Shown one piece after another: positions 3,596 through 55,694 of a stretch of DNA of 64,000 nt (the first letter of the stretch is position 1; each line of letters opens with the position of its first letter). The position numbers and the translations under genes were made by a program. The notes beneath the pieces were generated by a model. The model was not told where the DNA came from. It ran no database searches and saw nothing but the letters and a program-made list of their open reading frames with translations. The DNA is from an uncultured Poribacteria bacterium. Lineage in GTDB: Bacteria; Poribacteria; WGA-4E; WGA-3G. The DNA lies in assembly GCA_951813565.1 (NCBI GenBank), contig OX638351.1, forward strand, positions 416,001-480,000, read 5' to 3'.

Positions 3596-4039
3596 ACGTG
3601 AGTTTGATAATTAGACCTAAATGTAGATGTCCGTTGGGTAGAGCGAAGCGAAACCTATAGGCGTCAATTTAGTGCCTGATTTTCTTGTGGGAGGGCTTTC
3701 TAAGCCCGATATTGTGAGACTCAAACCGTTATATCGGGGTTGAAAACCCGACAAATGCCAAAAAGCGCATTTGGCGTTGATTTGGCAGCATGCCAAACGC
3801 GCATGCTGCGTTGATTCGCTCCCACAATAGGATATATCCTAAAATTGACGCCTATGGGTAGAGCGAAGCGAAACCCAACAATTCAACCGTCTTGGAAGTA
3901 ATTTAAAGTTGAGTTTCACTCATTTTCCTGTTATTTCGGCATCAAATGGAGAAAAAATCGCTCTTTTATGTCCGATTTTTTGTTTGTTCCGTTCTACCCA
4001 ACGGACAGTGGTTATTGAATTTTATTATCAAACTCACGT
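3596..4039. mobile_element. MITE 'B' (IS982-like ends) containing nested elements
   Basis: Perfect 15-bp TIR ACGTGAGTTTGATAA/TTATCAAACTCACGT; 8-bp TSD TACCTATA (3588-3595, 4040-4047). Confidence 0.85.
3656..3856. mobile_element. MITE 'C' inserted in a REP hairpin
   Basis: TIR ATAGGCGTCAATTT/AAATTGACGCCTAT; 19-bp flanking direct repeat GGTAGAGCGAAGCGAAACC (3637-3655, 3857-3875). Confidence 0.85.
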
Positions 4040-4075
4040 TACCTATAAGTTTTAGACATGGAAACACTGTTTTTA

Positions 4076-4983
4076 TAGTAGATATTGAAAATAAGTTTAC
4101 ATTTTCTGGGATTTATGCTAGCCTTTATAATTATGGCATATTCAACAGATTTACGCAAACGCGTGCTTGATTTCATCAATAATGGTGGCAGTAAAGCCGC
4201 CGCAGAACGCACTTTTCGTGTCTCAAGAAGAACGATCTATAACTGGTTGGAAGCAGAAGACCCCTTCGCCTGTGAAAAACCGGGACCCAAAGGGCCCCGA
4301 GATATTGATTATGACGCACTTCAGCAACATGTTGCCGATTTCCCAGATTCCACACTCGCCGAACGTGCTAAACACTTCGGTGTTTCAACAAATGGCATCT
4401 TTTATGCCTTCTCAAAACTCAATATCACGCGAAAAAAAAGACCACGACCTACAAAGAACAGTGTCCGATAAAACGCCAAGAGTATCTTTCGGCACTTCAA
4501 CAAGAGACACAGGCGCATGGCAAAACACCGGTTTATCTTGACGAAAGTGGTTTCACTGAAACCACTTTCCGTCGGTATGCTTATGCCCCGAAAGGTGTCC
4601 GTGTTGAAGATAAAGTGCCAAGCCATCGGTATACCACCACGACGCTGATTGCTGCAAGGCTTGATGGATGTTTCACAGCACCTGTGCTTTTCGAGGGCAG
4701 TTGCGACGCGGTCGCCTTCAACAGTTGGCTTTCGGAAATGTTGTGTCCATTGCTTGACGATAGCCATGTTGTGATTATGGATAATGCGTCTTTCCACAAA
4801 GGTTCACAGACGGCGGCATTGATCCGGGATTGCGGTGCGAGTTTGTTGTTTTTACCGCCGTATTCACCGGAGTTGAACCCGATTGAGAAGGATTTCGCCA
4901 ACATCAAGCGGATACGTCAATACAACGCTGAGACCTCTATTGATGATATTATAAAAGTGTATAAGTAATTACGGGATTTACTA
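4076..4983 (+). mobile_element. IS630-family insertion sequence
   Basis: Imperfect TIRs TAGTAGAT.../...ATTTACTA flanked by TA; encodes a frameshifted transposase. Confidence 0.9.
4133..4968 (+). CDS. IS630 transposase (OrfA 4133-4471, then -1 programmed frameshift into the DDE OrfB)
   Basis: MAYSTDLRKRV HTH start; slippery AAAAAAAAG at 4432-4440; the -1 frame reads KKTTTYKEQ...VYLDESGF...VIMDNASFH...LPPYSPELNPIE. Confidence 0.9.
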
Positions 4984-5184
4984 TAATAGAGAACAATACA
5001 TATTTCGCAAGTTTTCGTAGTGCAAACTGTTAGTTTGCGGACTAATATGCACAATCTAAATGAAGGTTAAAAAATAAATTCGGTAATTTCAGTCCCGTAG
5101 GGACGATATGTTTATAGAAATGTGATAACCTACCTTTAAACCTCATACATTATGGGCTTTTAAAAGTCCACTAAGGCTTGAGTC

Positions 5185-5964
5185 TCATTCGGTCAACTCA
5201 TAATGCTCCATTAATACTTTTTCAAAGTCATCCGGCGGATTTGCCATTATCTCGTAAATATTAATTTTATCGTAGCCTTTAATGGTGGCATATTGTGCCA
5301 GATTGCGATAAAACGTTGCACCACTGGTCATGAATTCACCAAATTCACCGGGAATTGATTCATGGGAATCTGCAAGTTTTAAGAGATCGGAAGTACGCAC
5401 ATCACCGTTTGTGTCCACATATTTTTGGAGTACCGTTGCTAAATTGTTCATGTCGGTAAGTACGGTGGGACCTCCTGCGGCTTCTTCAAAAAGGCTAATC
5501 AACTCTTGCACTTTTTCTGGGTGCGTTGAAGAGTGTATACCTCCACCTATTATATTGCCTATTTTGTCCCAGAGTTCCCGCGCCTTTCGCCGGTCTTCTC
5601 GTTTTGCTAATTCTTCAGGCGAGAGCGTTTCCTTCATCTCTTCTTCCTCCGCAGCAACATCCTGAAGTAATTTCTCTACATCTGCATCAGAGACTTTCCC
5701 CTCTGCAGCAAGTTCCTTGAGAAATTTCTCTATCTCTGCGTCAGAGGCTTTTCCTGAATCAACTTCTTCAGTGTCAACACTGCCAACGTTTACCTCCTCT
5801 GGCGTTTCTTTTTTCTTCAGGCTTTCCTCTAACATTTTTTCTGCCTCAGCAGCCTCTTGTTCAAGTTGCCGGATATTTGCGCGATCGTGTCGAACCCACA
5901 CCACGGCGGCTCCAACGAGTAGAAAAATGAGAGCGGCAAGTCCCAAGTATTGTATGCGTTTCAT
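5185..5964 (-). CDS. Hypothetical membrane-anchored acidic protein
   Basis: AGGAGG RBS, N-terminal TM helix, 259-aa ORF. Confidence 0.7.
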   Translation of the reverse strand: MKRIQYLGLAALIFLLVGAAVVWVRHDRANIRQLEQEAAEAEKMLEESLKKKETPEEVNVGSVDTEEVDSGKASDAEIEKFLKELAAEGKVSDADVEKLLQDVAAEEEEMKETLSPEELAKREDRRKARELWDKIGNIIGGGIHSSTHPEKVQELISLFEEAAGGPTVLTDMNNLATVLQKYVDTNGDVRTSDLLKLADSHESIPGEFGEFMTSGATFYRNLAQYATIKGYDKINIYEIMANPPDDFEKVLMEHYELTE

Positions 5965-6187
5965 CGTGTTCCTCCTATAAGATTGAAGTTATCCATTCAG
6001 GTCAATTCGGTATAATTACTTGAAAACTTCTTTCGGCGCGCTATGATGAAGTATCAAATTTTACTCAGCATTTCCTAACAGGTAGGATTACCTTTAGATC
6101 GGTTGTTTCAAAGCGCGCTTTTGACACAATGCCACTACTGAACAATATTCAATACTCCATCATGCGCGAATAGCGTCTGTGCTGCTT

Positions 6188-6742
6188 CTAATCATCCTTT
6201 TTTTCCTTTTTACCTTTTTTGGATCGAAGCTCTTGAAGTATCTCAACAACAGTTTCCATCTGTTCCTCTAATTTACTGAGGCGCGGTTCAACGGGATCAG
6301 GTTTATCTTCTTCTACTTCAACAACTTCAATTGTAGATTCCGAAGATTCATCATCCTCCGAATCCGTTTCCCTCATACTAAAGATAGAGCGACTAACAAC
6401 TTCGCCAACATCTTTCATTACATTGCCAATCGTTTCCTTCTCTTTCTTAAAATCGAGGTCGAAATCAAATCCCATTCCTTCTTTGAGATACGTGGCAACT
6501 TGATGGTACGCATAACCGATGTCACCAACAGATGAATCTTCGTTTAAATGTTCAAAAAGTCCCTCTGGCAGTGCCTCTAAATCATACAACCTTGACAATG
6601 CGCTGTTGAATTGTCGGATGCACCGATTTTGACCATTTGAAAAATGGTCAAAAACAGAAGGTTTCTCAAGAATCCTTGTTGTTGCTTCTAACATTCGGAC
6701 AATTCGCCGAACTTCCTTTTGGGTTTCACGTTCATTACTCAT
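6188..6742 (-). CDS. Hypothetical protein
   Basis: AAGGAG RBS; 184-aa ORF with a coiled-coil-like C-terminus. Confidence 0.7.
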   Translation of the reverse strand: MSNERETQKEVRRIVRMLEATTRILEKPSVFDHFSNGQNRCIRQFNSALSRLYDLEALPEGLFEHLNEDSSVGDIGYAYHQVATYLKEGMGFDFDLDFKKEKETIGNVMKDVGEVVSRSIFSMRETDSEDDESSESTIEVVEVEEDKPDPVEPRLSKLEEQMETVVEILQELRSKKGKKEKKDD

Positions 6743-6872
6743 TTTAAAATCTCCTTATCATGGATGCTTTTGACACTATAGAGTCTTTGATATACAAAAA
6801 GGATAGTAAAATTGTCAAAAAATACAATTTTTCGTTTTCCACCTCCATAATTTGCTATACAGAGTGTAATTA

Positions 6873-8081
6873 TCAACCTTTCTTTAATTCGCCTACATTA
6901 CGTCTGATTTTTATTGCCGCCTTAATAATGTCTTCCATATCCTCTTCTGTTCCCATCAAAACATTCTGACCAAAGGCGAGTCCTGATTGACATATTTTTT
7001 CGGTTTCGGCACAGTGAACATCTGAAAAATCAAGGTCGCTACCGAAAAGATTAGAGGAAAGAAACGAAGCACGATACATCGGCGTGTTATACCAATATCC
7101 GATAGGTATACCTTCGGCGCGCATCGCACTGATAAAAGTTCCACGTGATATATCTTCAAACTCTTCAGAATCAAAAATTGCTTTGTAGCCGTGGGAACCG
7201 CATCGGGTTGCACGAGGATCCAGTGGTGTTACCTTGATACCGGGAATCTCACCAAACCATCCGTCTAACCAGCGCATATTCATGTGTCTATGATTAGTTT
7301 CAGCTTCAAGTCGTGTCAAGCGAGAAAGCAGGAGTCCAGCCTGCCACTCTGTCATTCTGAAATTTCCACCAAACGGTTCTATATTACCAGATTCTGCATC
7401 AGGCGGTGTGCGTCCGCAGTTGTGGAGTGCCCACGCACGCTCATAGAGTTCTTTATCATTCATCAAAACGATTCCACCTTCACCAGCACAAAGATTTTTA
7501 GAGGATTGGAAACTGAAGCATCCGAAATCCCCCCAACTTCCTACACCTCTGCCGCGCCATTCTGCCCCGTGTGCTTGCGCGCAATCCTCAATAATTTTCA
7601 GATTGTGGCGATCACCAATCTCTACAAGCGCGTCAAGATCAGTGGGATAACCAGCGATGTGAACAGGTAGGATCGCTTTCGTCTTTTCTGTAATTGCCTC
7701 TTCCACTTTGGAAACGTCCAATAGAAAACTATCGCGGGCAGTGTCAACAAAAACTGGTACGGCATGTGTCATCAAAATAGCAACGACAGTAGCTTGAAAT
7801 GTATATGCGGTGGTAATTACCTCATCACCTGGACCTACCTTAGCCGCTTTTAACGCAATATAGAGTGCGGTAGTGCCGCTATTGACACAAACACCATAGT
7901 TTGCTCCTTGGAATTCAGCGAATTGTTTCGCAAATTCAGGAACTTTTGTTCCGCCAACTCCCCATTGTCTGCTGTTATAGATACTCTCAAATGCTTCTAT
8001 GTCTGCAGGATCAAGAGTAGGCCATGTAGGGTAAGGCTTGGTTCGGATCGGTTCACCGCCATTTATTGCTAAAATAGACAT
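6873..8081 (-). CDS. DegT/DnrJ/EryC1/StrS-family PLP aminotransferase (AHBA-synthase-like)
   Basis: NSGTTAL, IIEDCAQAHGA, FSFQSSKNLCAGEGG, NFRMTEWQA motifs. Confidence 0.92.
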   Translation of the reverse strand: MSILAINGGEPIRTKPYPTWPTLDPADIEAFESIYNSRQWGVGGTKVPEFAKQFAEFQGANYGVCVNSGTTALYIALKAAKVGPGDEVITTAYTFQATVVAILMTHAVPVFVDTARDSFLLDVSKVEEAITEKTKAILPVHIAGYPTDLDALVEIGDRHNLKIIEDCAQAHGAEWRGRGVGSWGDFGCFSFQSSKNLCAGEGGIVLMNDKELYERAWALHNCGRTPPDAESGNIEPFGGNFRMTEWQAGLLLSRLTRLEAETNHRHMNMRWLDGWFGEIPGIKVTPLDPRATRCGSHGYKAIFDSEEFEDISRGTFISAMRAEGIPIGYWYNTPMYRASFLSSNLFGSDLDFSDVHCAETEKICQSGLAFGQNVLMGTEEDMEDIIKAAIKIRRNVGELKKG

Positions 8082-8098
8082 GTCAAGTCTCCATTTTT

Positions 8099-8596
8099 TT
8101 ATTCAGATCCGAAATTTTTTACAAATTCAGGTGGAAATTTTCCTGACACTACTTGACCGATTAAGTCGTCTAACGCATTTTGGGCTTTTTCTGCTAATTC
8201 GGTGGCAATAATACCTTCATCAAGAGCAGTTTCAAACTCATCCTCATCTTGAATTTCATAACTGCCATCGGGGGATACCCATAAATCAAGGAATAGGTCA
8301 ACAATTTCAAATTGATCTGAACTTCGCTTCACTGGCTTCATAATATCGCAATAATAACCTGTCCATTCGTCATCCAGATTGTATATTTTACCGATGTCAT
8401 ACCACAATCCTGTAAATACAAACCAAACCGCTGTAAAGTTGTCCCCTAAAACTGTCTCACCGTTCAGAATGATTGGGGAAGAAGGTTTAATCTGTTGCGA
8501 CGTGACAATAACGTCTTCGTCTTCATAAAGCAGTTGCTGCTGAAAATAATTAATCCGATCTGGTAGTCTTTTATATGTCAGGGTTATTGTTTGCAT
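8099..8596 (-). CDS. DUF402-domain protein
   Basis: GYYCDI...VDLFLDLWVSPDGSYEIQDEDEF signature. Confidence 0.85.
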   Translation of the reverse strand: MQTITLTYKRLPDRINYFQQQLLYEDEDVIVTSQQIKPSSPIILNGETVLGDNFTAVWFVFTGLWYDIGKIYNLDDEWTGYYCDIMKPVKRSSDQFEIVDLFLDLWVSPDGSYEIQDEDEFETALDEGIIATELAEKAQNALDDLIGQVVSGKFPPEFVKNFGSE

Positions 8597-9218
8597 CTTC
8601 CGTTCTTACTTCATCAGCTTGTCTAACTGCTCTGATGAATGCCTTAATTTTTTGGTGATCCTTCTGACGTTTTTCTGATTCAACACCGCTGGCAACATCA
8701 ACAGCGTCCGGCTTAACATATTGGACAGCATCTGCAACGTTTTGTGGTGTTAAACCACCTGCGAGGATTAACCTATTTGTGTGATGTCGCGCTTTCTGAG
8801 CAAGTTTCAAATTGATTGTCCCAGTTGTTATTGATTTTGGTTTATCTACAAGACAGGCACTTACATTGTAAGCATCTATAGTCTTCAATTTAAAATCGCT
8901 ATGAAGTTCAAATACTTTTATGACAGGCAATGAAAGTTGTGTGCAAAATTCTGGTGATTCAACTCCGTGTAATTGGACAGATGTGATACCTGTTTGCATA
9001 GCAATATCTTGAATTTCCTTGTGTTCAGCATTCCTGAAAACGCCAACTGTTGAAATAAACGGAGGTAACGCTCGGATGATTTCAGCTGCATTATTAGGTG
9101 TGGTGTAGCGTGGGGTTTGTGGCACAAAAATAAATCCGAGAGCATCTGCCCCTGCTGCAACTGCTGTCTCTGCATCGGTAAGATTGGTAATACCACAAAT
9201 TTTAACGCGTGTTCGCAT
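8571..9218 (-). CDS. trpF: Phosphoribosylanthranilate isomerase
   Basis: RVKICGIT, QLHG.E, LAGGLTPQNV, VDVASGVE; start taken at MRTRVK. Confidence 0.95.
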   Translation of the reverse strand: MRTRVKICGITNLTDAETAVAAGADALGFIFVPQTPRYTTPNNAAEIIRALPPFISTVGVFRNAEHKEIQDIAMQTGITSVQLHGVESPEFCTQLSLPVIKVFELHSDFKLKTIDAYNVSACLVDKPKSITTGTINLKLAQKARHHTNRLILAGGLTPQNVADAVQYVKPDAVDVASGVESEKRQKDHQKIKAFIRAVRQADEVRTEDANNNPDI

Positions 9219-10203
9219 CAATTGCCTCACGGAAAGCCTTGATATGTGCAGGAGTCGTGCCACAGCAGCCACCGATTAAATATGCCCCCGCTTCTATGAG
9301 CTCGGGGACATAGCCTGCCATCTCTGTCGGTGTTTGTGTGTAGACAGTTTTATAATTCTCATCAAGTTCAGGCATGCCTGCGTTTGGATATGCCATCAAC
9401 CGTTTGCTGTTAATACCTATCTCTGCCAACGCGGTATTCAGCTGCTCGGTACCAGTGATAGCGTAAGGCATTCCTGAGTGCTCTGCGCGCTTTGATTCTG
9501 CGCCACAGTTTAGACCGATAATATCAACATAATCTATAAGTGGGTACCCTTTTGAAAACTCGCCACTGGCAAGGATTTGAAGTAAATCCGAAGCAGAATG
9601 TCCCCAGTCAGTTTTATAGATCACTTTGCCGGTGCGGTGTTCTTTTGTCCATTTATATGTCAAGTTTACTGCTATTGGCAGTCCTGTTTCGCGGGCAATA
9701 TCAACAGCAATTGCTGCTTCTTTCGCGGAAAACATCGTTTCAAGACAGAGAAAATCAACACCTTCCTCTGCAAGTGTGTGGATTACAAGTTTATGCGCTT
9801 CCCGAACTTTATCATTTGCAATGCCAAATGTAGTGTCGCCGCTATCTGCTTCAATTGCCCCTGGCGATGGTCCAACAGAACCCGCAATGTAAACATCTTT
9901 TCCGCTCTCTGAAACTGCACGTTTCGCATGCTGAACGCCAAGTCGTGTGAGTCGTTGCGCATCCGATTTATCTTGTCCTGCCATTTCCAGGTGAAGTGGG
10001 GATACTACAAATGTATTTGTGCCGATTGCTTCTGCACCAACATTGATATAATCTGCATGAATGTCAACAACATCAGCAGGATGCAGTTCGTTGGCAAGTG
10101 CGCTATTGGCAAGTTCTATATCGCGCGCAAATAGCTGCGACCCAAATCCGCCATCATAAAGTATTGGTTTATCAGACTTTAAACGTTCTTGAAAGGTTTT
10201 CAC
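9202..10203 (-). CDS. Homocysteine S-methyltransferase family protein (stand-alone MetH Hcy-binding domain)
   Basis: DGGFGSQL, GTNTF, GSVGP, LETM, Zn ligands GLNC and GGCCGTTP. Confidence 0.9.
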   Translation of the reverse strand: MKTFQERLKSDKPILYDGGFGSQLFARDIELANSALANELHPADVVDIHADYINVGAEAIGTNTFVVSPLHLEMAGQDKSDAQRLTRLGVQHAKRAVSESGKDVYIAGSVGPSPGAIEADSGDTTFGIANDKVREAHKLVIHTLAEEGVDFLCLETMFSAKEAAIAVDIARETGLPIAVNLTYKWTKEHRTGKVIYKTDWGHSASDLLQILASGEFSKGYPLIDYVDIIGLNCGAESKRAEHSGMPYAITGTEQLNTALAEIGINSKRLMAYPNAGMPELDENYKTVYTQTPTEMAGYVPELIEAGAYLIGGCCGTTPAHIKAFREAIDANTR

Positions 10204-10221
10204 GCTTTGTGTCGTTTCTCC

Positions 10222-12132: not shown

Positions 12133-12295
12133 TTATTTTAGTCAGAACGACAATTATGATACATTTGATCAGCGTAGTGATTTCAACACATCCTGTGAAT
12201 GTAAGAGGCGCAATGAATTGCGCGACTACAAACGCGGCAAATAAGAGAAAATGGCTTTGCAATCCAGATCACCTATGATAATGTTTCAAAGTGGT

Positions 12296-13054
12296 TTACC
12301 ATTCTTCGTCTGTTTCTTCAAGAAAGTGTTTGGCTAATTCCACACACGCCAAGGCATCCTTACCGTATCCGTCTGCACCCATATCATCCGCGAATGTCTG
12401 GGTGACTGGGGCACCACCAACCATAATTTTCACTTCTTCACGCAGGTCTTCGTCAATAAATGCATCAATTGTTTTGCCCATGTTCGGCATTGTTGTCGTT
12501 AGCAGTGCGGACATTCCTAAGATAGGTGCTTCGTATTCTTCCACTGCCTCAATGAATTCGTCTTCGGAGGTATCCACACCGAGGTCATGGACGACAAAAC
12601 CTGCCCCGCGCAGCATCATAATGCACAAGTTTTTGCCAATATCATGGAGGTCGCCTTTGACGGTACCCATAATCACCGTGCCTACAGGTTCAATTCCCGA
12701 ATCTGAGAGAATGGGTTCAATATGTGCCATACCTGCTTTCATTGCACGTGCACACGCAAGTACTTCGGGGACAAAGATAAAGTTCTCACGAAACTTGATG
12801 CCGACGATGCCCATTCCGATAATTAGACCATCGTCCATAATTTCCAGTGCTTCTGTGCCTGCTCCGAGTGCTTCTTGTGTCAATTCATCAACGGTGTGAT
12901 GGTCACCGTCAATCAATGCAGCAGAGATGTCCTGCATGTCAGGAGTCGCTTGGGTGAACATCTCAATAAAACGTTCTATCTCTTCAGGACGTTCAAGGTA
13001 TTCTTCAATTTCTTCTCGGATAAATTCGTTCGCGATGTCATTTATAGATGCCAC
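12296..13054 (-). CDS. Corrinoid (B12-binding) protein, MttC/MtgC/MetH cap + B12 domain type
   Basis: IFVPEVL..ARAM, GTVKGDLHDIGKN, SALLTTT, MVGGAPV; GTG start at 13054 after AGGAGG. Confidence 0.92.
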   Translation of the reverse strand: MASINDIANEFIREEIEEYLERPEEIERFIEMFTQATPDMQDISAALIDGDHHTVDELTQEALGAGTEALEIMDDGLIIGMGIVGIKFRENFIFVPEVLACARAMKAGMAHIEPILSDSGIEPVGTVIMGTVKGDLHDIGKNLCIMMLRGAGFVVHDLGVDTSEDEFIEAVEEYEAPILGMSALLTTTMPNMGKTIDAFIDEDLREEVKIMVGGAPVTQTFADDMGADGYGKDALACVELAKHFLEETDEEW

Positions 13055-13120
13055 AGGTTGAATATCCCTCCTTGAAGATATAGGATACCACACCTGTGGA
13101 AAAATGGCAAATTAATTGGA
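13010..13120. repeat. 111-bp direct repeat, copy 1 (upstream region, RBS and first 15 codons of the corrinoid gene)
   Basis: 104/111 identical to 14535-14645 by manual alignment. Confidence 0.95.
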
Positions 13121-13149
13121 ATAAAACTGAGGGAGAGAATATAAAAATA

Positions 13150-13191
13150 AAAAGAGAAGCAGGTAACCGTCCCGTTACTTGCCTCTCTTCT
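13150..13191 (-). terminator. Putative intrinsic terminator after the TolB-like gene
   Basis: Minus strand AGAGAGGCAAGTAAC-GGGACG-GTTACCTGCTTCTCT followed by a T-run. Confidence 0.6.
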
Positions 13192-13242
13192 GATGCAATT
13201 TACCAAATCAACGCTAAATGTGCATAAGTTCTTTGGCGGGTT

Positions 13243-30642: not shown

Positions 30643-31980
30643 CTGATTTACCCCCAGTTTTTGTAGAAACAAATGTGCATAAGGTTTTTCAGATACTTTG
30701 TGTGAGGAGGTCAATGCTGGACTGCTACGGACTTTATCCCGCACAATCGGTTATAGTAATACGAGTCAAGGAAAATGTCAGGTTCCCAGGTTGTCTCCAG
30801 TATTCTTTTTATAGCAAAAATGAGTGAATATGTTTTTGTGTATTATAGGTTTTTATCCACCGCTCCCCAGATTTTTCAAAATGGAGGAAACAGATACCAT
30901 AACTCACATAAACGATAAACCATAATAATACGATCCGTGGTAGTTCTTGCTGCTTCAATCGTAAATGCCGGAACCCGAATAGTGTCTTTATATCTCGGAA
31001 ACATTCTTCTATCTGCCTCCGCTTTTTATAGGTCCGTTTTTATAGGTCCGATAGAGTTGTGCGTTCTGTCCACTATTTGAAATGAGATAAAGCGGTTCTT
31101 TATGGCGAACATCTCTAAAAACATAAAGGTTCAGTTTGAGTTCCTTTGTGCTGTGATAAGATATGTTAGGATAGACATCTGTATTTTTCAGTGTCTCAAG
31201 TTTGATGCGTTGTCCTTTGTGGTAAAAACAAGCATTTGGACAAACGCATCCGACAAACTCAATACCAGTTTCCATCAGAGGTTTCATCAGATACCTTGCG
31301 CGCGCACATCCTCTGTCAAACACGAGGATCGGTCTTTGGACATTCGGTAGGCGGTTTCAAACTGCTTGATGAACTGGCAACAAAACTCTTGAACAAGCAC
31401 ATTATGGCTCGGGTAGACCATCTTGTCAAAAGCGTCTTTTTTGTAGATTTTCCAATAGATCGGAATAGCGCGTTTGCGAAATGGCACAGCAATAACAATA
31501 ATCCTGTAGTCTCGGAGAATATCATTCTCATCTACAAGCAGGGTGCGGGGCACACGCCCTGTTTTGTCATATAACCACGATAAGACAAAGACACACCACG
31601 CCTCCATAGCAATAGATGTAGGAAAGTTTGAGTTGATAAACCGGAGCAGTCGTTTTTGTTTCGTTTTATAATGGGCAACGCAAACGGGTAAGTGTGCCGA
31701 AATCGTCCTTATTTGAAATGTTTTCGTGTGAAGACACGCCAATATGACCAAAATAAGATTTCTGAGAGCAGGACGTTTCAACACTTTTTTGAACCCTTGT
31801 TTTACTTGTGGGATGAGCACGCGTGGATAGACTTTGTCCGATGCAATCTGTTTCAGTGGAATACCTCTAAAATATACGCTATAAAATAAAATTTGAAAGC
31901 AGTTTAGCATACAAAACACTTTTGCACAACTATTATGAGAATACAAACAAATATGGCCCCTCAAAAACTGGGGAAATCAG
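30643..31980 (-). mobile_element. Degenerate IS4-superfamily element with a frameshifted transposase pseudogene
   Basis: Imperfect TIR CTGATTT(A)CCCC(C)AGTTTTTG; fragments LLVDEND...RAIPIYW, FDRG, and YKKRRQIEECFRDIK (Y..R..IE..FRD.K signature) in different frames. Confidence 0.8.
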
Positions 31981-46635: not shown

Positions 46636-47086
46636 ACCTAAGTTGCTACCTATAATATACTTTTAATTCCATGGGATTTGCTCTATAATGTTTTTATTCC
46701 AACAAAACAAAAGGAGAAACCCCATGGAATTAACCATTGTAGCAATTTATACGATTTGTGACGATCTTTTAATTTCACTCGGTCATCAAACGCATCCACA
46801 AGCACAAATGACAGATGCTGAAGTGATGACAACTGCGATTATCGCAGCACAATATTTTGGAGGCAATCATCGAAGAACTTGCTGTGTTCTGAAAACTCTC
46901 GGATACATCCCGAATATGTTAGGACACTCCCGATATAATCGTCCATTTCATCGGATACCTCATTTGTTTCAAATACTTTTTGAGTATTTCGCAGAAGTCT
47001 CTAAATCTAATAATCCGAATGGTATTTATGCGATTGACACCTATCCCGTTGCTGTATGTGACAACATTCGTATTAGTCGGTGTCGC
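46636..47086 (+). pseudogene. Truncated IS982-family element (left end plus transposase 5' fragment 46724-47086)
   Basis: Left end ACCTAAGTTGC; AIYTICDDLL, MTDAEVMT, SRYNR, AIDTYPVAVCDNIRI, then an abrupt break. Confidence 0.85.
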
Positions 47087-47088
47087 AG

Positions 47089-48210
47089 CTGGATGCTGCG
47101 CTGGCGGCAATAGAGACAGCCTATACGCTCTATGCATAGCAGCATGACACCTATTTGGGCGTAATGGCGCCACATCTTGGCAGAGAAAAATCTACGCTTG
47201 CTATGTCATCAAGTACGGGTCAAACGTCTTTTTCTCACATCGGTAGCACCAGTGGTGACCCACATTCTGTTGATAAACTCTGGGGCAAAGATCATTGGGA
47301 TATGGATAACCTCCAAGAAAGATATGCGTGTAAATCTGGCAATCCTTGTATGGATTCCTACCGGACGCCGTACGAAGCGTTGACAGCACATCAGTGGACT
47401 TGTGGGTCGGATTACTTTATTGTGAGCCATAGGGCACCTGGGTGTGGTGAAAAGTATTATAAATGTCCTAATCATGGTATTCCTGATTCTCACAATACCT
47501 TTAAATGCAACAGATATAATCTGGTTGTCAAAGCAGGGGAAAGTGGTCGTGTCAGAGAATACTGCGGTATCAACTTCCGCTATTGCACCAAATTCACTTA
47601 TGATTCTTATGGGAATATCACCACAATTACATCGGCTGGTAGGTGTTCTAAATTGCTCGGTGTTGGGCAATCAGGGTCACACGATCATGGTATTTCAGAG
47701 GACCCAGACACATCTCCTGGTCGTCACCGACATTCTGAAGAGACGGAGACCACCATCCCGTATGCGTGTGGTGATCATAGCGGTGTTCGACGTGCAGCGA
47801 GTGGTCATGTCGCTGCGGGCTGTGGTAATCCGAATCACTTTATTTGTGATCTCGGTAATCACGCGCCGACAAGCTGTGGACTTCTTGATCACTTTAATTG
47901 TGATAGCCTAACGCATGTTGAGGAACAATGCACGATAACTAATTCAAACGGGGAACGATGCACGTATATGTTCTGGCGATGTGGGAATCTGACGCACACG
48001 CATACGTATCCTACGCCACCACCGCCACCGCCACCGAGTGCGACTTGTGCGAATGGACATTCTTACAACCCCGATAATCGTCCTGAAAATAATCAGCATC
48101 GGACCCGCACGTGCAGACACTGTTCGCAGACGTGGGAAGTGTGCGGAACGGGCAAACCGCTGTGTAACAAACCAAACCGCAAACAGAATGGTTGGAAGTG
48201 TCGGGAATAG
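47089..48210 (+). pseudogene. Cys/His-rich multi-zinc-finger-like protein, 5'-truncated
   Basis: About 23 Cys and many His in 351 aa; the frame extends back to the IS982 junction through an in-frame TAG at 47137. Confidence 0.65.
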
Positions 48211-48229
48211 AGTAGTTTGGCAAACCTCA

Positions 48230-48256
48230 CAGGCAGGTATCTGCCTTTTCTTTTTA
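48230..48256 (+). terminator. Putative terminator
   Basis: AGGCAG-GTAT-CTGCCT followed by a T-rich tract. Confidence 0.55.
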
Positions 48257-48453
48257 CAAGTGTATTTTTGCACTTGACATCCCAGAAAAAATATGATAGA
48301 TTTTTACAACATAGTGTTCAAAAAATTACCTTTATTAGGAGAATCTGCTCAATTGAATTTTAAAAGTCATGTATAATAGTTGATAAACACTCGGACTGTT
48401 CCTCCCGACTGTATATTTTGAAAATCTTCTACAAAAGATAGAGGGTAACACCG

Positions 48454-49326
48454 ATGCGCAATAACAAAATTTTTGTTTTATTCTGCTTTATGGGTATCAG
48501 TGCGTTTATGGTCTACTTTCTTATAAAGATAGAAGACGCCGAGCAGAAAAAGAAAGCTGCCGTTATACCAGTTGAACTGCCATATACTTGGGTAGGCAAT
48601 ATTAGCAAAACGACAATCGCTGAACCTTCTGGCGTAACCTATCACCCAATACGGCGGACTCTATTCGTCGTAGACGATGGTGGACATATTCATGAAATTC
48701 GTCCAGATGGCACGGTTATTCAGACAAAGGCATTGCAAGCGCGCGACTTGGAAGGAATTACGACTCACCCAAAAACCGGATGGCTTTATGTGGCTGTTGA
48801 GGATGAGGAAGCCATTTTGGAAATTAGCCCACAGACACTTACGGTCCATCGGGAGTTTAAAATCAATCGTTCTTTTGAAGGAAAATCGCTTCTAAAAAAA
48901 GGAGGTATGGGGATAGAGGCAATCACCTTTGTTCCGGATGCTTCACACCCGGAGGGTGGTACCTTTTGGATTGGCAATCAATCATTTAGTCGCAAACCTG
49001 ACGGAGAACCTTCAGTTATATGTGAAGTCGTTGTGCCTCTTCTCACTTCTAAAGCAGTGAAAGCTGAAGGAAATATTATTCGTTTTTTTGAGATGGAGTT
49101 CCTGGATATTTCTGGACTCACCTACAACGCAAAAGCCGATTCTCTTGTGCTAATCAGTGATACAACAAACCTATTGGTCGAACTCAAAAGAGATGGAACA
49201 CTCCTACATCGCTACCTATTACCGGGTGATGACCAAGAAGGGATAACGTTAGATGGACTCGGCTACATGTATATTGCCCAAGAAAGCGGCCAAATCATCA
49301 AGTTAGCTGACCGTAGACTTCGTTGA
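48454..49326 (+). CDS. SdiA-regulated/YjiK-like beta-propeller protein
   Basis: EPSGVTY, DLEGIT, GIEAITF, DISGLTY, DQEGITLD repeats; N-terminal anchor. Confidence 0.8.
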   Translation: MRNNKIFVLFCFMGISAFMVYFLIKIEDAEQKKKAAVIPVELPYTWVGNISKTTIAEPSGVTYHPIRRTLFVVDDGGHIHEIRPDGTVIQTKALQARDLEGITTHPKTGWLYVAVEDEEAILEISPQTLTVHREFKINRSFEGKSLLKKGGMGIEAITFVPDASHPEGGTFWIGNQSFSRKPDGEPSVICEVVVPLLTSKAVKAEGNIIRFFEMEFLDISGLTYNAKADSLVLISDTTNLLVELKRDGTLLHRYLLPGDDQEGITLDGLGYMYIAQESGQIIKLADRRLR

Positions 49327-49344
49327 AAAGAGAATTGTAATCTT

Positions 49345-49548
49345 TCATTCGGTATCTTGAAGGCGAAGCACAACTACTTCTGGCATCAAATCTAAAATAG
49401 GATTGAGAGAAGCATATTGTTCAGCGGTGTACCCGCAATCTACACGCCACAACACTTGCACATTGCCCTCATCATAGATAACACCGGTGGCAAGTTTATT
49501 ACCTTTAGCATCTTCTAACTGAAAACTTCTGCGGCGTTTCGTGTCCAT
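49345..49548 (-). CDS. Small hypothetical protein
   Basis: 67-aa ORF with plausible composition. Confidence 0.5.
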   Translation of the reverse strand: MDTKRRRSFQLEDAKGNKLATGVIYDEGNVQVLWRVDCGYTAEQYASLNPILDLMPEVVVLRLQDTE

Positions 49549-49665
49549 AGCAGGACCCTTGCGATGGTGGTTGATGTCAATCTAAGTTATAAAGGTGTAA
49601 TAGTTCAGGATTCACTGCGTTCTGAAGCAATTATCCCACACTCCAGCACTACAAAGAGTCAATTA

Positions 49666-49783
49666 TAGGACTTACGCCATTTTCACGTTTTTTTAATAAT
49701 TATGATTAAAATGTCGTAATTTCAGCAGGATTCTGAGTTTCCAGCGCGCTTACAAAGTGCCTACCGATTGTGCGTAAGTCCTG
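49666..49783. mobile_element. MITE 'D'
   Basis: TIR AGGACTTACGC/GCGTAAGTCCT; 5-bp TSD AATTA (49661-49665, 49784-49788). Confidence 0.8.
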
Positions 49784-49885
49784 AATTAGTGATATATTTC
49801 TTGTTAGAGGGGTTTTCAACCCCGATTTCTTCTGTAGGAGGCGCAATTAATTGCGCGACTACAAACACATATATTCTTAAATTGA

Positions 49886-50455
49886 ACGTGAACTTGATAA
49901 TTAGAATAAATATAGATGTCCGTTGGGTAGAGCGAAGCGAAACCCAATCAACGCTATGAATGCCTTTTGGCGGAATACGCTTTTGGTATTCCGCATGATT
50001 CAGCCAAATCAACGCAGCATGCGCCAAATCAAGAAATCAACGGTATGAATCATGGCGAATGCCATATCAACGCCAAATGCGCTTTTTGGCATTTGGCGGG
50101 TGTAAACTTAAGCACATAATTACCAGATTGTCTCTTGTGGGAGGGGTTTTCAACCCCGATTTCTGATGCTATAGCTTATTATATCGGGCGGACAAGGTCT
50201 CCCTCCCACAAGAGAAAATACAGCATTTTTTCTTAAGTTGACACTTATGGGTAGAGCAGTAGCGAAACCCAACAATTCAACCGTCTTGAGAGTAATAAAG
50301 AGTTGGGTTTCACTTATTTTTTCGGAAATATCGTCCTCAAATAGCTCAACAACCTCTCTTTACGGTCTGTTTTTATTGTCCATTTCCGTTCTACCCCACC
50401 GAATGCCATAGGCGCATTCGGTGTTGATTCCCTACGGGATTTATCAAACTCACGT
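49886..50455. mobile_element. MITE 'B' copy 2 with a nested MITE C and TTGATT hairpins
   Basis: ACGTGAACTTGATAA/TTATCAAACTCACGT; 8-bp TSD TAAATTGA; internal sequence homologous to 3596-4039. Confidence 0.85.
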
Positions 50456-50594
50456 TAAATTGACAGTTATAGGGTTTCACTGCGTTTTACTCAACCTACG
50501 CTGAATTCTTGTCCCGATAGGTTTGGTTTCCTAACCGTACCTTTAACTAATGTCCAATTAATTCTAAAAGCTACTATATTTTATAGTATACACA

Positions 50595-51431
50595 TCAAAG
50601 GTCAACAAAATCGGCGTCTACGCGATGCGGAATCACACCATTTTCATGACCACGGTTGAGCAATTCCTGCACCGCTGTCCTACCGCTCTCTCCATAATCT
50701 AAAGTATAATCATTAACATACATTCCAACGAATTTGTCAGCAAGGTCAGTTTCCATGTCTCGTGCGTAGGTCATTGCATATTCAAGTCCGTGTTCCCGGT
50801 GTTCAAGTGAATATTGAATACTCTGTTTCAATAGTGCTGTGATTGAACGTATTTTTTCTGTGCCGAGGTTGCGGCGAATAACGTTTGCACCAAGAGGTAG
50901 TGGTAATCCAGTCTCTTCGTGCCACCATTCACCTAAATCAACTATTTTGTGAAGTCCTTCGCGCGCGTAAGTTAGTTGTCCTTCATGGATGATGAGTCCT
51001 GCGTCAACTTCGCCTTGTTGAACAGCCTCAATAATCTGATCAAAGCGGTACGTTTTTGTTTCAATATCCGGTTGGAAGAGTTTCATTGTCAGATATGCTG
51101 TGGTCATCTCTCCAGGGATTGCAATCCGTTTACCGGTAAGAGTTTTTATTGGTGCTTTGGAAACGATTAAAGGTCCATACTTATCCCCGATGCTTGCACC
51201 GCACGGCATGAATGCATAATCATTTGCGACATAGGCATACGCGTGAACAGAAATCGCTGTAACTTCAAGTTCTGCTGCCAGTGCGCGTTTGTTCAGGGTT
51301 TCAATGTCTTCTATAACGTGGACAATTTCAAACGATTCAGTTGGAATAAGCCCTTTTGCAAGAGCATAGAACATGAAGGCATCATCAGAATCAGGACTAT
51401 GTCCGATCCTAATTATCTCTGTCTCAGACAT
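50595..51431 (-). CDS. mqnD: 1,4-dihydroxy-6-naphthoate synthase (futalosine menaquinone pathway)
   Basis: IGHSPDSDDAFMFY, DIETLN, IAIPGEMTTA, LIIHEGQLTY, GLPLPLG, MYVNDYT. Confidence 0.92.
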   Translation of the reverse strand: MSETEIIRIGHSPDSDDAFMFYALAKGLIPTESFEIVHVIEDIETLNKRALAAELEVTAISVHAYAYVANDYAFMPCGASIGDKYGPLIVSKAPIKTLTGKRIAIPGEMTTAYLTMKLFQPDIETKTYRFDQIIEAVQQGEVDAGLIIHEGQLTYAREGLHKIVDLGEWWHEETGLPLPLGANVIRRNLGTEKIRSITALLKQSIQYSLEHREHGLEYAMTYARDMETDLADKFVGMYVNDYTLDYGESGRTAVQELLNRGHENGVIPHRVDADFVDL

Positions 51432-51486
51432 CGTGCTTTTCCTTTCTTACATTGTTATTGCTGTCTGTTTGTGTTATCATGATAAC

Positions 51487-52422
51487 ATGGCGGCACGAAA
51501 ATATCTCTATCTTATGGCGATTCCGTCTCAACTTACAGAACTGGCATCCGCGGAATCGGTTGCGTTGACCGGTGTTGCTCCAGATGCGTATGGCATCACA
51601 GTTTCGGGAACGTGTGTTGATGTACGCTGTGGCGCTTATGTCAAAAGTTGCACCGAAGTTCTCTTTGAAACTGATAGCGTCTCAGAACTCTATGTGAACA
51701 TCCGCTCTGCAGATTTATATGCGGACGACTTTCGGGTGTCCGTTGTTAAAAAGCCTCGTAACATGAATGTTGACTCAATGGCGTTAACACGTCAGATAGG
51801 TAGTATCATTGGCGGTAAGCCAAATTTATCATCTCCACAAGTTGTCTTTCTAACCGTTATTACCCCTAAAAAAATATGGTTCGGTCGCCTTCTTTCGGAA
51901 TCTGATGGCATGTGGGTTGCACACGATCAGCGTCCGCACGTGACTTCCAGTTCACTCCCTGCAAGGCTGGCTCGCGCATTTGTTAACCTTGTAGCTTCTC
52001 CCGGTGACCATCTGCTTGATCCCTGTTGCGGTACCGGGACAATTGTAATGTCGGCTGCACATTGCGGCATTCATGCATCAGGTTACGATATCAATCCGCG
52101 CATGGTCGGTGCAACAACCAAGAATCTTGATCATTACGGACTTACGGCTGACGTGCAATTAGGCGATGCGCGCACGATACAGCAAAGGTTCAACGTAGTT
52201 GCTACAGATCTGCCTTACGGTATAAACCTTGTTAAGGATACCGCCGCCACAAAAGAGATTCTAACAAATCTACGGTCCTGTGCTCCGAAAACTGGATTTA
52301 TTGACATTCGCGATCTCAGCCAACCGCTTGCTGATTTGGGGTATCAAGTAAAGACTATTATTCCTGTCCCAAAGATGCGTCTTGTCCGGCGTATTTTCAT
52401 TGCCATCAGTGATGATCAATAG
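51487..52422 (+). CDS. TRM11/UPF0020-like SAM-dependent RNA methyltransferase
   Basis: SSLPARLARA, LDPCCGTGTI, TDLPYG. Confidence 0.8.
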   Translation: MAARKYLYLMAIPSQLTELASAESVALTGVAPDAYGITVSGTCVDVRCGAYVKSCTEVLFETDSVSELYVNIRSADLYADDFRVSVVKKPRNMNVDSMALTRQIGSIIGGKPNLSSPQVVFLTVITPKKIWFGRLLSESDGMWVAHDQRPHVTSSSLPARLARAFVNLVASPGDHLLDPCCGTGTIVMSAAHCGIHASGYDINPRMVGATTKNLDHYGLTADVQLGDARTIQQRFNVVATDLPYGINLVKDTAATKEILTNLRSCAPKTGFIDIRDLSQPLADLGYQVKTIIPVPKMRLVRRIFIAISDDQ

Positions 52423-52847
52423 TCATCAATATTTTCATAAAAATCAGTTTCTGGCAAGTACTCACCTTCGTCGAGTTCCTCTTCTTCATAGTCTTCATAT
52501 TCATCTAAATCCAAAAGCGAGTCAAGTTCGCTGAGATTGTCAATGTAGATTTTACAAATCCAACCATCACCTTCCGGGACGCTATTGATGAGTTCGATAT
52601 CTTCTTCAAGTGCTAAATTGACTTCGTAAATCTCTCCAGCAACAGGTGCATAGAGATAAAAGTTTCCGCCAGTTTCGGTTTCAATTCTACCAACAATTTC
52701 ACCTTGTTCACATTCTTGTTCAGGGGACACATCAACAAAAATAATCTCACCGTAAAGGTGTTGAGCGCGCTCTGTAATGCCGATAGTTCCCTCTGTGTCA
52801 ACAACTTCAATCCATTCGTGCGTAGTCGTATATTTTACGGTGCTCAA
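52416..52847 (-). CDS. Glycine cleavage H-like protein lacking the canonical lipoyl-Lys
   Basis: KYTTTHEWI, TIGITERAQ..GEIIFV, APVAGEIYEVN, INS.P..DGWI; IETET in place of VESVK. Confidence 0.85.
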   Translation of the reverse strand: MSTVKYTTTHEWIEVVDTEGTIGITERAQHLYGEIIFVDVSPEQECEQGEIVGRIETETGGNFYLYAPVAGEIYEVNLALEEDIELINSVPEGDGWICKIYIDNLSELDSLLDLDEYEDYEEEELDEGEYLPETDFYENIDDY

Positions 52848-52867
52848 CGTGCATTCCTCCAAAAAAT

Positions 52868-52930
52868 TACAGTAAAACTAATCATTTATACACTGCGGTA
52901 GGTGTTCACATGTTTTTAGATTTTACTATA
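52868..52930. mobile_element. Short IS630-type MITE
   Basis: TACAGTAAAACTAA...TAGATTTTACTATA. Confidence 0.55.
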
Positions 52931-52934
52931 AACA

Positions 52935-53537
52935 TCACTGTAAACCTTGTATTTTAATCCCGATGCTTTGAAGTTGTGCGTGGAAAGTTTCCAGCACTTT
53001 TTGCTGAATCTGAATTGCGATAATTGGGTCTGGGTCATATTCAATATTTACTACTTGTCCTCCCAAGCGTTTACATAGTGTAACAACTGCCCCTATATGG
53101 CTATAGGGGACCTTTAAGTATAGGTCGTGATAAAAAGTACAAATCTCTAAGATGGCATTTTCGAGGCATGCGCGTGCACACGCGCTGTACGCTCTAATCA
53201 ATCCACCAATTCCAAGGTTGATACCTCCATAATACCTTGCAACAACGATTATTGTGTTAGATAATCCAGCAGCACGAATTGTGCCGAGGATAGGGGGACC
53301 TGCTGAATGTGTCGGTTCACCCGCATCTGTCGAATATTCTATTTTTTCATCGCCATTACCGAGTCTGTAAGCATAACAGTAGTGGGTAGCTTGACGGATT
53401 CGTGTTCTGACACCAGCAACAAATCTTTTAACAGCATCAGGGTTATTTACTGCCGATGCTTCTCCAAAAAACCTTGATTTTTTGACTACATGTTTAGCAG
53501 TAGCGATTCCAACAATTGTTTGGTACTCGCCTGACAT
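52935..53537 (-). CDS. YigZ/IMPACT family protein
   Basis: VKKSRF, ATHYCYAY, DAGEPTHSAG, RYYGGINLGIGGLIRAY. Confidence 0.92.
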   Translation of the reverse strand: MSGEYQTIVGIATAKHVVKKSRFFGEASAVNNPDAVKRFVAGVRTRIRQATHYCYAYRLGNGDEKIEYSTDAGEPTHSAGPPILGTIRAAGLSNTIIVVARYYGGINLGIGGLIRAYSACARACLENAILEICTFYHDLYLKVPYSHIGAVVTLCKRLGGQVVNIEYDPDPIIAIQIQQKVLETFHAQLQSIGIKIQGLQ

Positions 53538-53651
53538 AATTCATACACCCGTAACATCGGACACTGCGTCCGTCTAAGTGTTTGGAAGTTTTCCGATAAA
53601 TGTATATTTTAAAATAAGATGTTCAAGACAGTATAAAGGTATCAAAAGCGT

Positions 53652-54806
53652 TTAAAAATCCTGTCCAATGGAAAAGGTATAGACAGCAGAACCTTGAGCA
53701 ATTTGAATGCGTTCATCCTCGGATACAGTCGGCATGAATTGAGGAATATAAGCGGCATTTAGTATTATGTTTCCAAACCGCACGCCAAATCCTAAGCAGA
53801 GACCTTCCGCTTTCCAATTTCGTTCTTCCATCTCAAGTGTAGCATCTTCTAAAAGAAAAACAGAAGCATAACGTTTTTCAATATCCCTGAGGTATCCAAT
53901 TCTACCGCCAATACGATCATGAAACCAAAACTCAGCCCCGAGGTTAACTCGCATGCCATCACTAAAAGGCGGGTGTAAATCTAACCCGAGACGCAAAGCC
54001 GTGTTTGCAATTTCGCGTTGATATGTTATACCAGCAATAACATCACGGCGAATTTTATCTGGAATAGTAGGGTCAACAAATGATAACCCATTACTCAAAT
54101 TACGGACGACAAGACCTACCTGAATTGCGTCTCCAAATCTCTGAATAAGTCCAATATTATAGGCATACCCACGTCCGAAATGCTCTACCCCCAACACATC
54201 AGTAACCTTAGACCGCAACCATTTTGCATCAAATCCAACGACAGTGCTTCCAAAGTAATTTAAACCGTAACCGAGTCCGACAGCAAGGTTATTTTCTGGA
54301 AAGTTGTTGAGTGCTTTTCCTTGATGGCTAACACGGCGAAAATTGCCCTCATGTGCTGTAGATAAAGCAAAACCTATAGTGCCGAACTTGCCTATTGGAA
54401 ATGCCCAATTCAATGTTTCAACGCCCGAAGCGCGCTGTTCATACTGGCTATAATCCTCGTAGTTCGCATTGAAATTCGGTTTAGAAATTAGCGCGATGGT
54501 ACGCGGAAAACGGGTCATGTGAATTACAAATCGATCTCCTTTAGTAACGCTTATTCCAGCAGGGTTGTTACCAAGAGCGTTTGCGCCACTGGTTGCCCCA
54601 ACAAAACTACCACCCATTCCACGATGTTCAGCGCCAAGCAACTGTTTGAGAAATCTGTCTGCTTCTGCGGTTGTGTTTGCCACTGAGGCAATGCTATTTG
54701 AAATGGAAAAACAGAAAACGAGGTAAAATACACAAATCAACAACGAAATTTGTAAACACTGTAGTGACAGAATCCAATTGTGCGAAATTTGCAATTTTCT
54801 TTTCAC
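53652..54806 (-). CDS. PorV/PorQ-like outer-membrane beta-barrel
   Basis: GAEHRGMGG....A.....NNPAG motif, amphipathic strands, terminal Phe; GTG start at 54806 (the longer ORF extends into a MITE). Confidence 0.72.
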   Translation of the reverse strand: MKRKLQISHNWILSLQCLQISLLICVFYLVFCFSISNSIASVANTTAEADRFLKQLLGAEHRGMGGSFVGATSGANALGNNPAGISVTKGDRFVIHMTRFPRTIALISKPNFNANYEDYSQYEQRASGVETLNWAFPIGKFGTIGFALSTAHEGNFRRVSHQGKALNNFPENNLAVGLGYGLNYFGSTVVGFDAKWLRSKVTDVLGVEHFGRGYAYNIGLIQRFGDAIQVGLVVRNLSNGLSFVDPTIPDKIRRDVIAGITYQREIANTALRLGLDLHPPFSDGMRVNLGAEFWFHDRIGGRIGYLRDIEKRYASVFLLEDATLEMEERNWKAEGLCLGFGVRFGNIILNAAYIPQFMPTVSEDERIQIAQGSAVYTFSIGQDF

Positions 54807-54865
54807 CTTCTTACTTACTCCAAAGATATGTGTGAGTATATTATGTAACGTCAGTATATTATGTA

Positions 54866-55694
54866 ACGGGAGTTCGGAAATGCCGTAGGTTGGGTAGAAT
54901 AACGTGAAACCCATAGGTGTAAACTTAAGGATTTTAACCTCTGTTTTTCTGTTTCAGCCCGCCAAATGCGTTATGCACGTTTGGCGTTGATTTGGACATG
55001 GTAGTAGGCACGCGCCGCGTGCCGTCCACAAGTGAATAGATTACGGCGGCCGGAGTATGCCTACTACTTTGCATTGCACATCTTTTCTTAAGTTGACACT
55101 ATGTGTCTCCTGTGTTTAACCCAATAGGTGTAAACTTAAGGATACACCTTCTTGTGGGAGTGAATCAACGCCAAATGCGCTTTTTGGCATTTGGCGGGTT
55201 TTCAACCCCGATTTACTTGGTTGAATCTCGAAAATCGGTCGGACAAGGTCTCCCTCCCACAAGAGAAAATCCAACATTTTTTTCTTAAGTTTACACCCGC
55301 AGCATGCCATACGCGCATGCTGCGTTGATTTATGGGTTTCGCTCCGCTTTATCCATAGGTGTCAATTTAGCGGTTCGCCACATTAGTAGGCGCGTTTTAT
55401 AAACGCGTCGTTAGACAATTTTTAGCACAGATATAGCGCGTGGACAAAACGCGCTACCTTTGGGTAATAAATCGGGCTTAGAAAGCCCTCCCACAAGAAA
55501 ATCAGGCACTAAGTTTACACCTATGGGTTTCGCTGCGCTTTATCCCGCCAAATCATGCAGCATACCATACGGGGAATGCCTAAAGACGAATGCACATATG
55601 GCATTCGCCATGATTCATACCGTTGATTTGGCGTATGCTGCATGATTTGGTGTTGATTCCCTACATTTACATTTGGATATTATCAAACTCACGT
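54866..55694. mobile_element. MITE 'B' copy 3 containing three tandem MITE C copies, REP hairpins and TTGATT hairpins
   Basis: Degenerate left end ACGGGAGTTCGGAAA, right end TTATCAAACTCACGT, 6-bp TSD TATGTA; MITE C at 54912-55103, 55123-55334, 55354-55525. Confidence 0.75.

Follow-up and report, generated by a model that had tools for sequence, protein, structure and literature searches.

The described elements that appear closest to the one analyzed here are the small dispersed repeats (SDRs) of the Nostocaceae, SDR1-8, reportedly introduced by Elhai et al. in 2008 as units of 21-27 nt that insert into themselves, undergo compensatory changes in their stems, and take heptamer repeats as targets. 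To our knowledge, the SDRs were described in 2008 without a known enzyme. Another class of small elements, the miniature inverted-repeat transposable elements (MITEs) of DDE insertion sequences, carries terminal inverted repeats and is flanked by a target-site duplication (TSD). SDR5 is described as inserting into the HIP1 sequence (PMC4390886, PMC5861425). Here, we analyzed a 64,000-nt stretch of DNA (the window; G000:C1:416001-480000) from an uncultured Poribacteria bacterium whose genome (G000; 5.43 Mb, 43% GC) is a single contig, and we describe a hairpin followed by the hexamer TTGATT that is very probably a mobile micro-element and may be a variant of the SDR kind. Like the SDRs, it is very short, structured and clade-restricted, inserts precisely into other repeats and into itself, leaves recognizable empty alleles, and shows compensatory stem changes; as the SDRs are described, it differs in its length of 33-36 nt, its invariant 3' TTGATT, its GTAG-type repetitive extragenic palindrome (REP) targets entered at C|N, and its occurrence in another phylum. 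No description of the hairpin+TTGATT family was found in the literature within reach of our search, which excluded most subscription papers, and Rfam gave 0 matches within the window.

The hairpin+TTGATT unit is genuine: an insertion element of very small size that is restricted to one clade. A hairpin is followed by TTGATT 305 times in G000, compared with 1-21 times for ten control hexamers, and a broader pattern recovered ~940 right ends in 523 clusters. An arm-plus-tail pattern was present in all 40 genomes of the genus at 4 to 571 copies, against 0-2 for reversed controls. Across the phylum, 87 of the 111 other family members contained units (88/112 when G000 is included), but only 1 of 64 genomes outside the family did, and the match in that one had no clear hairpin. 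Among the 80 matches listed from a species-wide collection (at least 106 stretches), 78 fell in records titled Candidatus Poribacteria; of the remaining two, one was another bacterial record with a true unit and the other a Steroidobacteraceae sequence lacking the family context. None of 25 matches in viral sequences to a 16-mer was accompanied by the hairpin.

Within the window, all nine stretches listed in a preliminary description of this DNA are present as described, with 12 family TTGATT ends, alongside one degenerate TTGATA end. Six hairpin+TTGATT combinations passed a strict threshold (at least 8 of 10 stem pairs plus TTGATT), whereas 100 windows simulated with a first-order Markov model held 0.14 on average and never more than 2. 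Folding z scores ranged from -3.3 to -4.1 for four single units or strands plus the nested unit. A chance origin of the window hairpins is excluded.

Simple units consist of a single hairpin with a 9-10-bp stem and a 7-8-nt loop, TTGATT, and two further bases, for a usual length of 34-36 nt (33-36 nt overall); bulged variants of 35-36 nt (GGGGAATGCC...CATACCG) as well as long-stem and composite forms also exist. The earlier proposal that structure is conserved above sequence holds: across 92 distinct, sequence-anchored stems, the Watson-Crick fraction was 0.66, compared with 0.54 +/- 0.016 (maximum 0.59) in 2000 arm shuffles, with an A.G mismatch common at the third stem pair (105/465). One stem offered in its support, CACCG, does exist as a variant, yet represents essentially one event, with 23 of 29 G000 copies sharing the CCC flank of one host repeat. 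The tail is invariant (782 occurrences, versus 3-8 for single-base variants) and is followed by a pyrimidine in 774/782 cases, the end pairs being TG (448), CA (123), TC (77), CC (46), CG (38), and TA (37). We infer that it is the hairpin-then-tail strand that folds or exists single-stranded, as DNA or RNA, because G.T pairs exceed A.C pairs on the strand with the tail at its 3' side (88 versus 38 among 259 distinct sequences, p=1e-5); the same excess was seen among single-mismatch stems (25 versus 10) and in a recount over stems (53 versus 18), while a crude control of GTAG palindromes gave 45 versus 35. This agrees with the polarity initially assigned. Orientation relative to transcription was inconsistent (271 versus 247). 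An apparent antisense bias after stop codons was a measuring artifact that disappeared when unit midpoints were used, and in a test for replichore bias the GC skew of G000 proved to be a mosaic.

Double-tailed forms, AATCAA-hairpin-TTGATT, were observed 11 times in G000 (G000:C1:1460149 and ten more) and in 25 of 40 genomes (e.g., L159, L152, L173, and L155). One in G044 lies between convergent genes, with a one-sided relative in G010; the open reading frame (ORF) preceding it is, as we take it by eye, rpoC. Such forms possibly arose by recombination between inverted copies and were kept as two-way terminators. A separate 10-copy repeat, CAAGTTGCTAC...GGGTTTTTCGTTGATT-CTGG (G000:C1:6084, 101068, 987971, and seven more), contains TTGATT but not the family hairpin.

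Boundaries were assessed by applying three deletion rules to 433 simple units and searching for exact 8+8 empty junctions. A unit read as G...TTGATT plus two bases, inserted after a target C, gave exact empties for 210/433 in 54 contexts, some of which were tandem junctions. A rule in which the unit replaces a T was the only fit for 22, and the 33-bp C...TTGATT boundary first proposed fitted just 5 (one unit fits two rules). The latter boundary also fails as a general rule in the window, where nine deletions were checked against exact 22-nt empty junctions elsewhere in the genome and it fitted one: deletion of 55298-55330 does restore ACACC|TATG, as had been stated. For 3749-3816, 3749-3782, and 55163-55196, empties (1, 12, and 26, respectively) were obtained only after shifting the boundary by dropping the first C and adding two bases past TTGATT, and five of the nine sites had an exact empty under no rule.

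The left join is precise and follows a C in every resolvable class (C|G, C|C, C|T, and C|A). The CC reported to precede each insertion is indeed found at all eight outermost window junctions, but genome-wide at 235/305; the constant feature is C alone, the third C of "CCC" is usually target-derived, and targets such as GAGGC^GC and CATAC^GC lack CC. The right join is loose, with 0-3 target bases lost (2-4 at loop sites). For the inverted GTAG tag, 242/246 empties over four left flanks have CC-T-AC, and filled copies continue with CAC in 31/45, with TAC in 0/45, and with other sequence in 14. The GGGGTCCC host likewise loses a T that is present in 28/30 empties, and empties of the 55298-55330 site read ACACC-T-ATGG in 95/105. 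No target duplication was seen at the mapped filled/empty sites, as originally claimed, although insertion is not generally clean, 1-3 target bases being gone at many sites. Junctions repeat no shared core dinucleotide. An alternative parsing with terminal inverted repeats and a TSD (CAAAT/ATTTG, GC duplication) was rejected because targets continue with GA or GT without duplication. The idea that the first stem pairs guide target choice, with A-variants directed to C^A, was also set aside: A-variants in G018 sit at C^G, yet all in one context, which makes this a weak test.

Exact empties were found in 68 distinct contexts, and the contrast between filled and empty alleles extends to paralogues and orthologues of unrelated genes, in keeping with the minimal, nonautonomous element with asymmetric ends that had been envisaged. 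A DDE_Tnp_1 transposase gene, presumably of ISAs1 type, carries a clean 36-nt unit at C^G, and 6/6 aligned copies from three relatives are empty. A ligase-like gene, which we take by eye to encode a lipoate-protein ligase, contains an in-frame 36-nt unit common to G006 and G046 and is empty in G040, G002, and G012. In an OGG_N glycosylase gene, the unit makes a net in-frame addition of 33 nt, with 6 of 19 aligned relatives empty. In-gene copies are common to species at ~85% identity. Units also enter their own foot and loop, and tandem arrays reach 315 bp.

Passive copying is evident as well. The 23 CACCG copies lie in one host repeat, three transposase copies carry the same unit, and two unique flanks surround only 21/602 units, so hairpin-rich DNA appears to be the main target. 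We infer that much of the copy number stems from copying within host REPs, MITE-like repeats, and insertion sequence copies, plus tandem duplication. Identical flanks of this kind would be expected if units were fixed internal parts of longer repeats that never moved independently, and no within-species empty allele was seen in the contigs of four runs, which break at repeats and are therefore uninformative there. That view is nonetheless highly improbable, being contradicted by the 68 contexts with exact empties, the insertions in three unrelated genes with empty orthologues or paralogues, and the entry of units into their own loop and foot.

Two side observations concern these sites. At the glycosylase locus (L382-L401, G000:C1:4444534-4445496), distant G035, G016, and G042 carry a strongly diverged 33-nt filling and nearer genomes are empty, a pattern that would fit recurrent insertion at this position, exact loss, or transfer of alleles. 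Tandem arrays of at least 3 units (G000:C1:57879-58085 and 15 more) include some in which two variants alternate strictly with a 69-bp period.

Comparison with other known systems revealed partial likenesses only; the unit has the defining features of neither the palindrome-associated transposable elements (PATEs) of IS200/IS605, nor REPs, IS110, or MITEs. With REPs, bacterial interspersed mosaic elements (BIMEs), REP doublets forming hairpins (REPINs), and the REP-associated Y1 transposases (RAYTs), it has in common small hairpins, extragenic copies in the hundreds, and an arrangement in mosaics and tandem arrays (PMC3333891, PMC8266576, PMC3116915, PMC6006769); some of its landing sites likewise follow C, among them C|A and the C|TAC found in inverted REPs. 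It differs in lacking GTAG/GTGG 5' of the hairpin foot, in carrying its conserved motif 3', in having no cognate REPtron that we found, in occurring singly rather than as a doublet, and in inserting into REPs, mainly at C|G. With IS200/IS605 PATEs, it shares asymmetric ends, a hairpin near a short 3' tail, the absence of target duplication, and a strand-specific fold; in contrast, it has one hairpin instead of left-end and right-end hairpins with guide tetranucleotides, no fixed target tetra- or pentanucleotide (only C is constant), frequent loss of target bases, and variable end bases (PMC6006769, PMC10055086). By eye, its ends are also unlike the IS200/IS605 ends of G000. IS110/IS1111 elements differ in that unit junctions repeat no core, and their DEDD recombinase (PF02371) was not found in G000, the only genome searched for it. 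The unit resembles MITEs in being nonautonomous, short, multicopy, and nested in other repeats, and departs from them in lacking terminal inverted repeats and target-site duplication and in being far shorter.

The mobilizing enzyme had been predicted to lie outside the window, and none was recognized among the 26 of 79 window ORFs scanned, the only signal being a weak IS982-family match below cut-off to a fragment at 46688-47113 (+). Elsewhere in G000, there were ten Y1_Tnp matches, three of them over the RAYT cut-off, and two reverse transcriptases (RTs), one beside cas1. RAYT genes of G000 include those at G000:C1:242059-242472 and G000:C1:5070821-5071234. The statistics relating copy number to enzyme presence cover the 40 genus genomes and ignore kinship. 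Genomes with a RAYT over cut-off had a median of 62 units (n=25) versus 19 in those without (n=15; Mann-Whitney p=8e-4, kin not being independent).

Our tentative explanation, which we regard as possible rather than probable, is that the unit is a nonautonomous element inserting as a single strand at nicks made by RAYTs. A RAYT nick would leave a 3'-OH after C, this end would be joined to the unit strand or would prime its copying, and microhomology of about one base, located two bases beyond TTGATT, would resolve the far end. Known RAYT cut sites coincide with many of the landing sites, namely those of the C|TAC, C|T, and C|A classes, although the majority classes are C|G or C|C. TnpA-REP cleaves single-stranded DNA at C|T and C|A; in Escherichia coli, one cleavage site overlaps the CTAC of the inverted REP, and the 3'-OH released is suggested either to be trimmed or to act as a primer for host synthesis (PMC3333891, PMC8266576). 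These landing sites and the co-occurrence across genomes suggest the RAYT among the candidate enzymes of the preliminary description, which had also named IS110, a family with no match in G000.

Several observations weigh against RAYT-dependent insertion. The cut sites given for TnpA-REP in the accessible parts of those studies (PMC3333891, PMC8266576) do not include C|G, the commonest join. REPs carry their GTAG guide on the 5' side, whereas the folded unit strand has its conserved motif 3' of the hairpin, and simple HUH strand transfer would not remove target bases. For 197 of the 433 simple units, no exact empty was found under any rule. Units occur in only 4 of 30 RAYT loci, most of which contain GTAG palindromes. 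G044, assembled as one contig, 92% complete, and carrying 55 units with intact stacks, gave no Y1_Tnp or RAYT match, and neither G051 (226 units) nor G014 (103) has a RAYT over cut-off. The correlation with copy number may simply mean that RAYTs supply more REP landing pads. We hold the RAYT mechanism as tentatively as we do because units enter mainly at C|G, their polarity is the reverse of that of REPs, and no cognate RAYT was found. The classical peel-and-paste form of HUH chemistry suggested at the outset does not fit, as the loss of 1-3 target nucleotides, the variable two-base end, and the absence of a fixed target tetranucleotide are at odds with IS200/IS605.

A more specific and rather doubtful version of the RAYT scheme is that the unit is a 34-base hyperparasite of the REP-RAYT system that moves by a natural prime-editing-like reaction, in which a nick after C would be extended on the hairpin+TTGATT strand (DNA or RNA) as template and closed by one-base microhomology, replacing 0-3 target bases. 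If true, this would be an undescribed transposition chemistry that could also explain SDR-type micro-elements in other phyla.

The template might instead be a stable 34-36-nt RNA fragment, a hairpin with an 8-nt U-rich tail that resembles a terminator or a product of decay; an RT or host polymerase would use 1-2-base microhomology to copy it into DNA breaks. An RNA intermediate was reportedly proposed by Elhai et al. in 2008 for the Nostoc SDRs. A unit end fixed 8 nt past the stem regardless of the last two bases, the G.T(U) excess on the hairpin-then-tail strand, one terminator-like score among window units, and a doubled tail, TTGATT-TC-TTGATT (within the 49946-50098 stack), that resembles slippage all point in this direction. 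We nevertheless consider it unlikely: RTs were detected in 18 of 40 genomes with no link to copy number (40 versus 57) and not in G006 (446 units), G040, G012, G042, G017, or G014; Cas1, present in 29/40, was not found in high-copy G006, G040, or G017; TTGATT is invariant in sequence beyond mere U-richness; and orientation to transcription is inconsistent.

Host repair or recombination alone would need no dedicated transposase, a stable single-stranded hairpin annealing by microhomology at stalled forks or at hairpin-induced REP nicks with the help of housekeeping enzymes. The presence of the family in all 40 genus genomes irrespective of mobile-element content, the microhomology and small deletions at junctions, and the rarity of units with two unique flanks are consistent with such a process. 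It does not account for an invariant TTGATT, a constant unit length, joining strictly after C, or the clean C^G insertions within genes, and Ku was found in 0 of 5 genomes with the control positive, so that we judge this, too, improbable.

Specific recognition is implied by the constancy of the tail and the conservation of the fold, which might alternatively reflect a dedicated transposase that is unrecognized or lost, a divergent HUH or other enzyme of an autonomous element with the same ends. The age of the family, evident from its spread over 88 of 112 genomes and from in-gene copies common to species, would leave room for loss of the enzyme from many genomes. We give this little weight in view of the searches. 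The 106 G000 right ends without a matched left end, out of ~940, nearly all have a hairpin within 75 nt and revealed no long element; no autonomous parent was seen among multicopy G000 repeats of >400 bp, of which the largest cluster (206 intervals) was left unresolved; no unit ends lay within 1.5 kb of the five IS200-type tnpA loci (L001-L005); the viral matches lacked the hairpin; PF02371 was not found in G000; and an IS607-type resolvase occurred in just 2 of 5 genomes without tracking the family. The Y2 transposase domain of IS91/ISCR elements, PF04986, was matched in 0 of 5 genomes, though no control genome gave a signal.

The RTs of these genomes include two of separate interest. One stands alone beside cas1 and a CRISPR-like array (L011, G000:C1:3988991-3992061), with a unit-bearing REP between the two genes, and the other, an RVT_1 protein of 515 aa (L012, G000:C1:811737-813284), resembles retron or Abi proteins by eye. 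On small contigs of G051, G015, G016, and G046 (L330-L333, L341-L343), RT reading frames as long as 1400 aa look like eukaryotic retroelement contamination of the bins.

The unit is among the smallest mobile-looking DNAs, and how elements of under 40 bases move is an open question. With ~940 copies in one genome, 88 genomes, junction rules, a folded strand, and the RAYT as a candidate enzyme, the family is testable with oligonucleotides and purified RAYT. Units within genes add 11-12 in-frame codons, as in the DNA glycosylase, and others disrupt REP hairpins and GTAG tags; they therefore shape the genomes of this sponge symbiont group. Sequence-directed, duplication-free insertion of 34 nt would be of interest for genome editing if the chemistry is new.

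Table 1. Hairpin+TTGATT units and their hosts in the window (positions within the 64,000-nt stretch; the caret or bar marks the join)
Positions	Strand	Feature	Basis
3733..3826	+	Host REP-like palindrome (GGGGTTGAAAACCC^CTCCCAC) interrupted by a tandem pair of units	Deleting 3750-3818 gives a 16-mer junction with 30 genome copies; deleting 3749-3816 gives none
3750..3784	+	Unit of 35 nt, G...TTGATT-TG, at C^G in the foot of the following unit	12 exact 22-nt empty junctions in the genome
3785..3818	+	Unit of 34 nt, GCAGCATGC variant, tail TTGATT-CG, at C^C of host REP	Sequence, deletion test
13204..13237	-	Older mismatched unit of 34 nt, tail TG, C^G site, directly after a stop codon in non-repeat DNA	Orthologue comparison
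49946..50098	-	Stack of at least 4 nested or part-deleted units within a repeat ending ACACC	Ends 50035, 50007, 49946, plus degenerate TTGATA
50397..50431	+	CACCG variant within GTAG-type REP, target bases lost	Passive copying with host repeat; 23 copies share the right flank
54961..54994	+	Unit of 34 nt, tail TG; C^G site assigned by the general rule	Sequence; exact empty allele not found in the genome
55161..55195	-	Unit of 35 nt, tail TTGATT-CA, at C^C of the host REP family also seen at 3733-3826	26 exact 22-nt empties; hairpin z = -3.7
55298..55330	+	Unit of 33 nt, C...TTGATT, at CC|TATG	5 exact 22-nt empties; hairpin z = -3.3
55546..55660	+	Outer unit with a long stem (~20 bp), its loop holding a composite unit	Sequence, folding, deletion test
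55571..55630	+	Inner composite GGGGAATGCC...CATACCG-TTGATT-TG at C^G of the outer loop (CATAC^GC)	Sequence

Some of these sites have informative counterparts (Table 1). The site orthologous to 13204-13237 is empty in G005 (L027), filled by a diverged unit in G046 (L015), and nested in G045 (L017), and the CATAC^GC loop site of the inner composite is the commonest target of the GGGGAATGCC...CATACCG variant. Apart from the units, a 1.3-kb stretch at 30643-31980 has two genome copies and is possibly an insertion sequence; the 225-aa ORF inside it (31287-31964, minus strand) has no NCBIfam match. Positions 54850-55700 form a ~850-bp REP/MITE-like repeat mosaic between two conserved genes, an interval that spans only ~100 bp in six close relatives and is occupied by different repeats in others.

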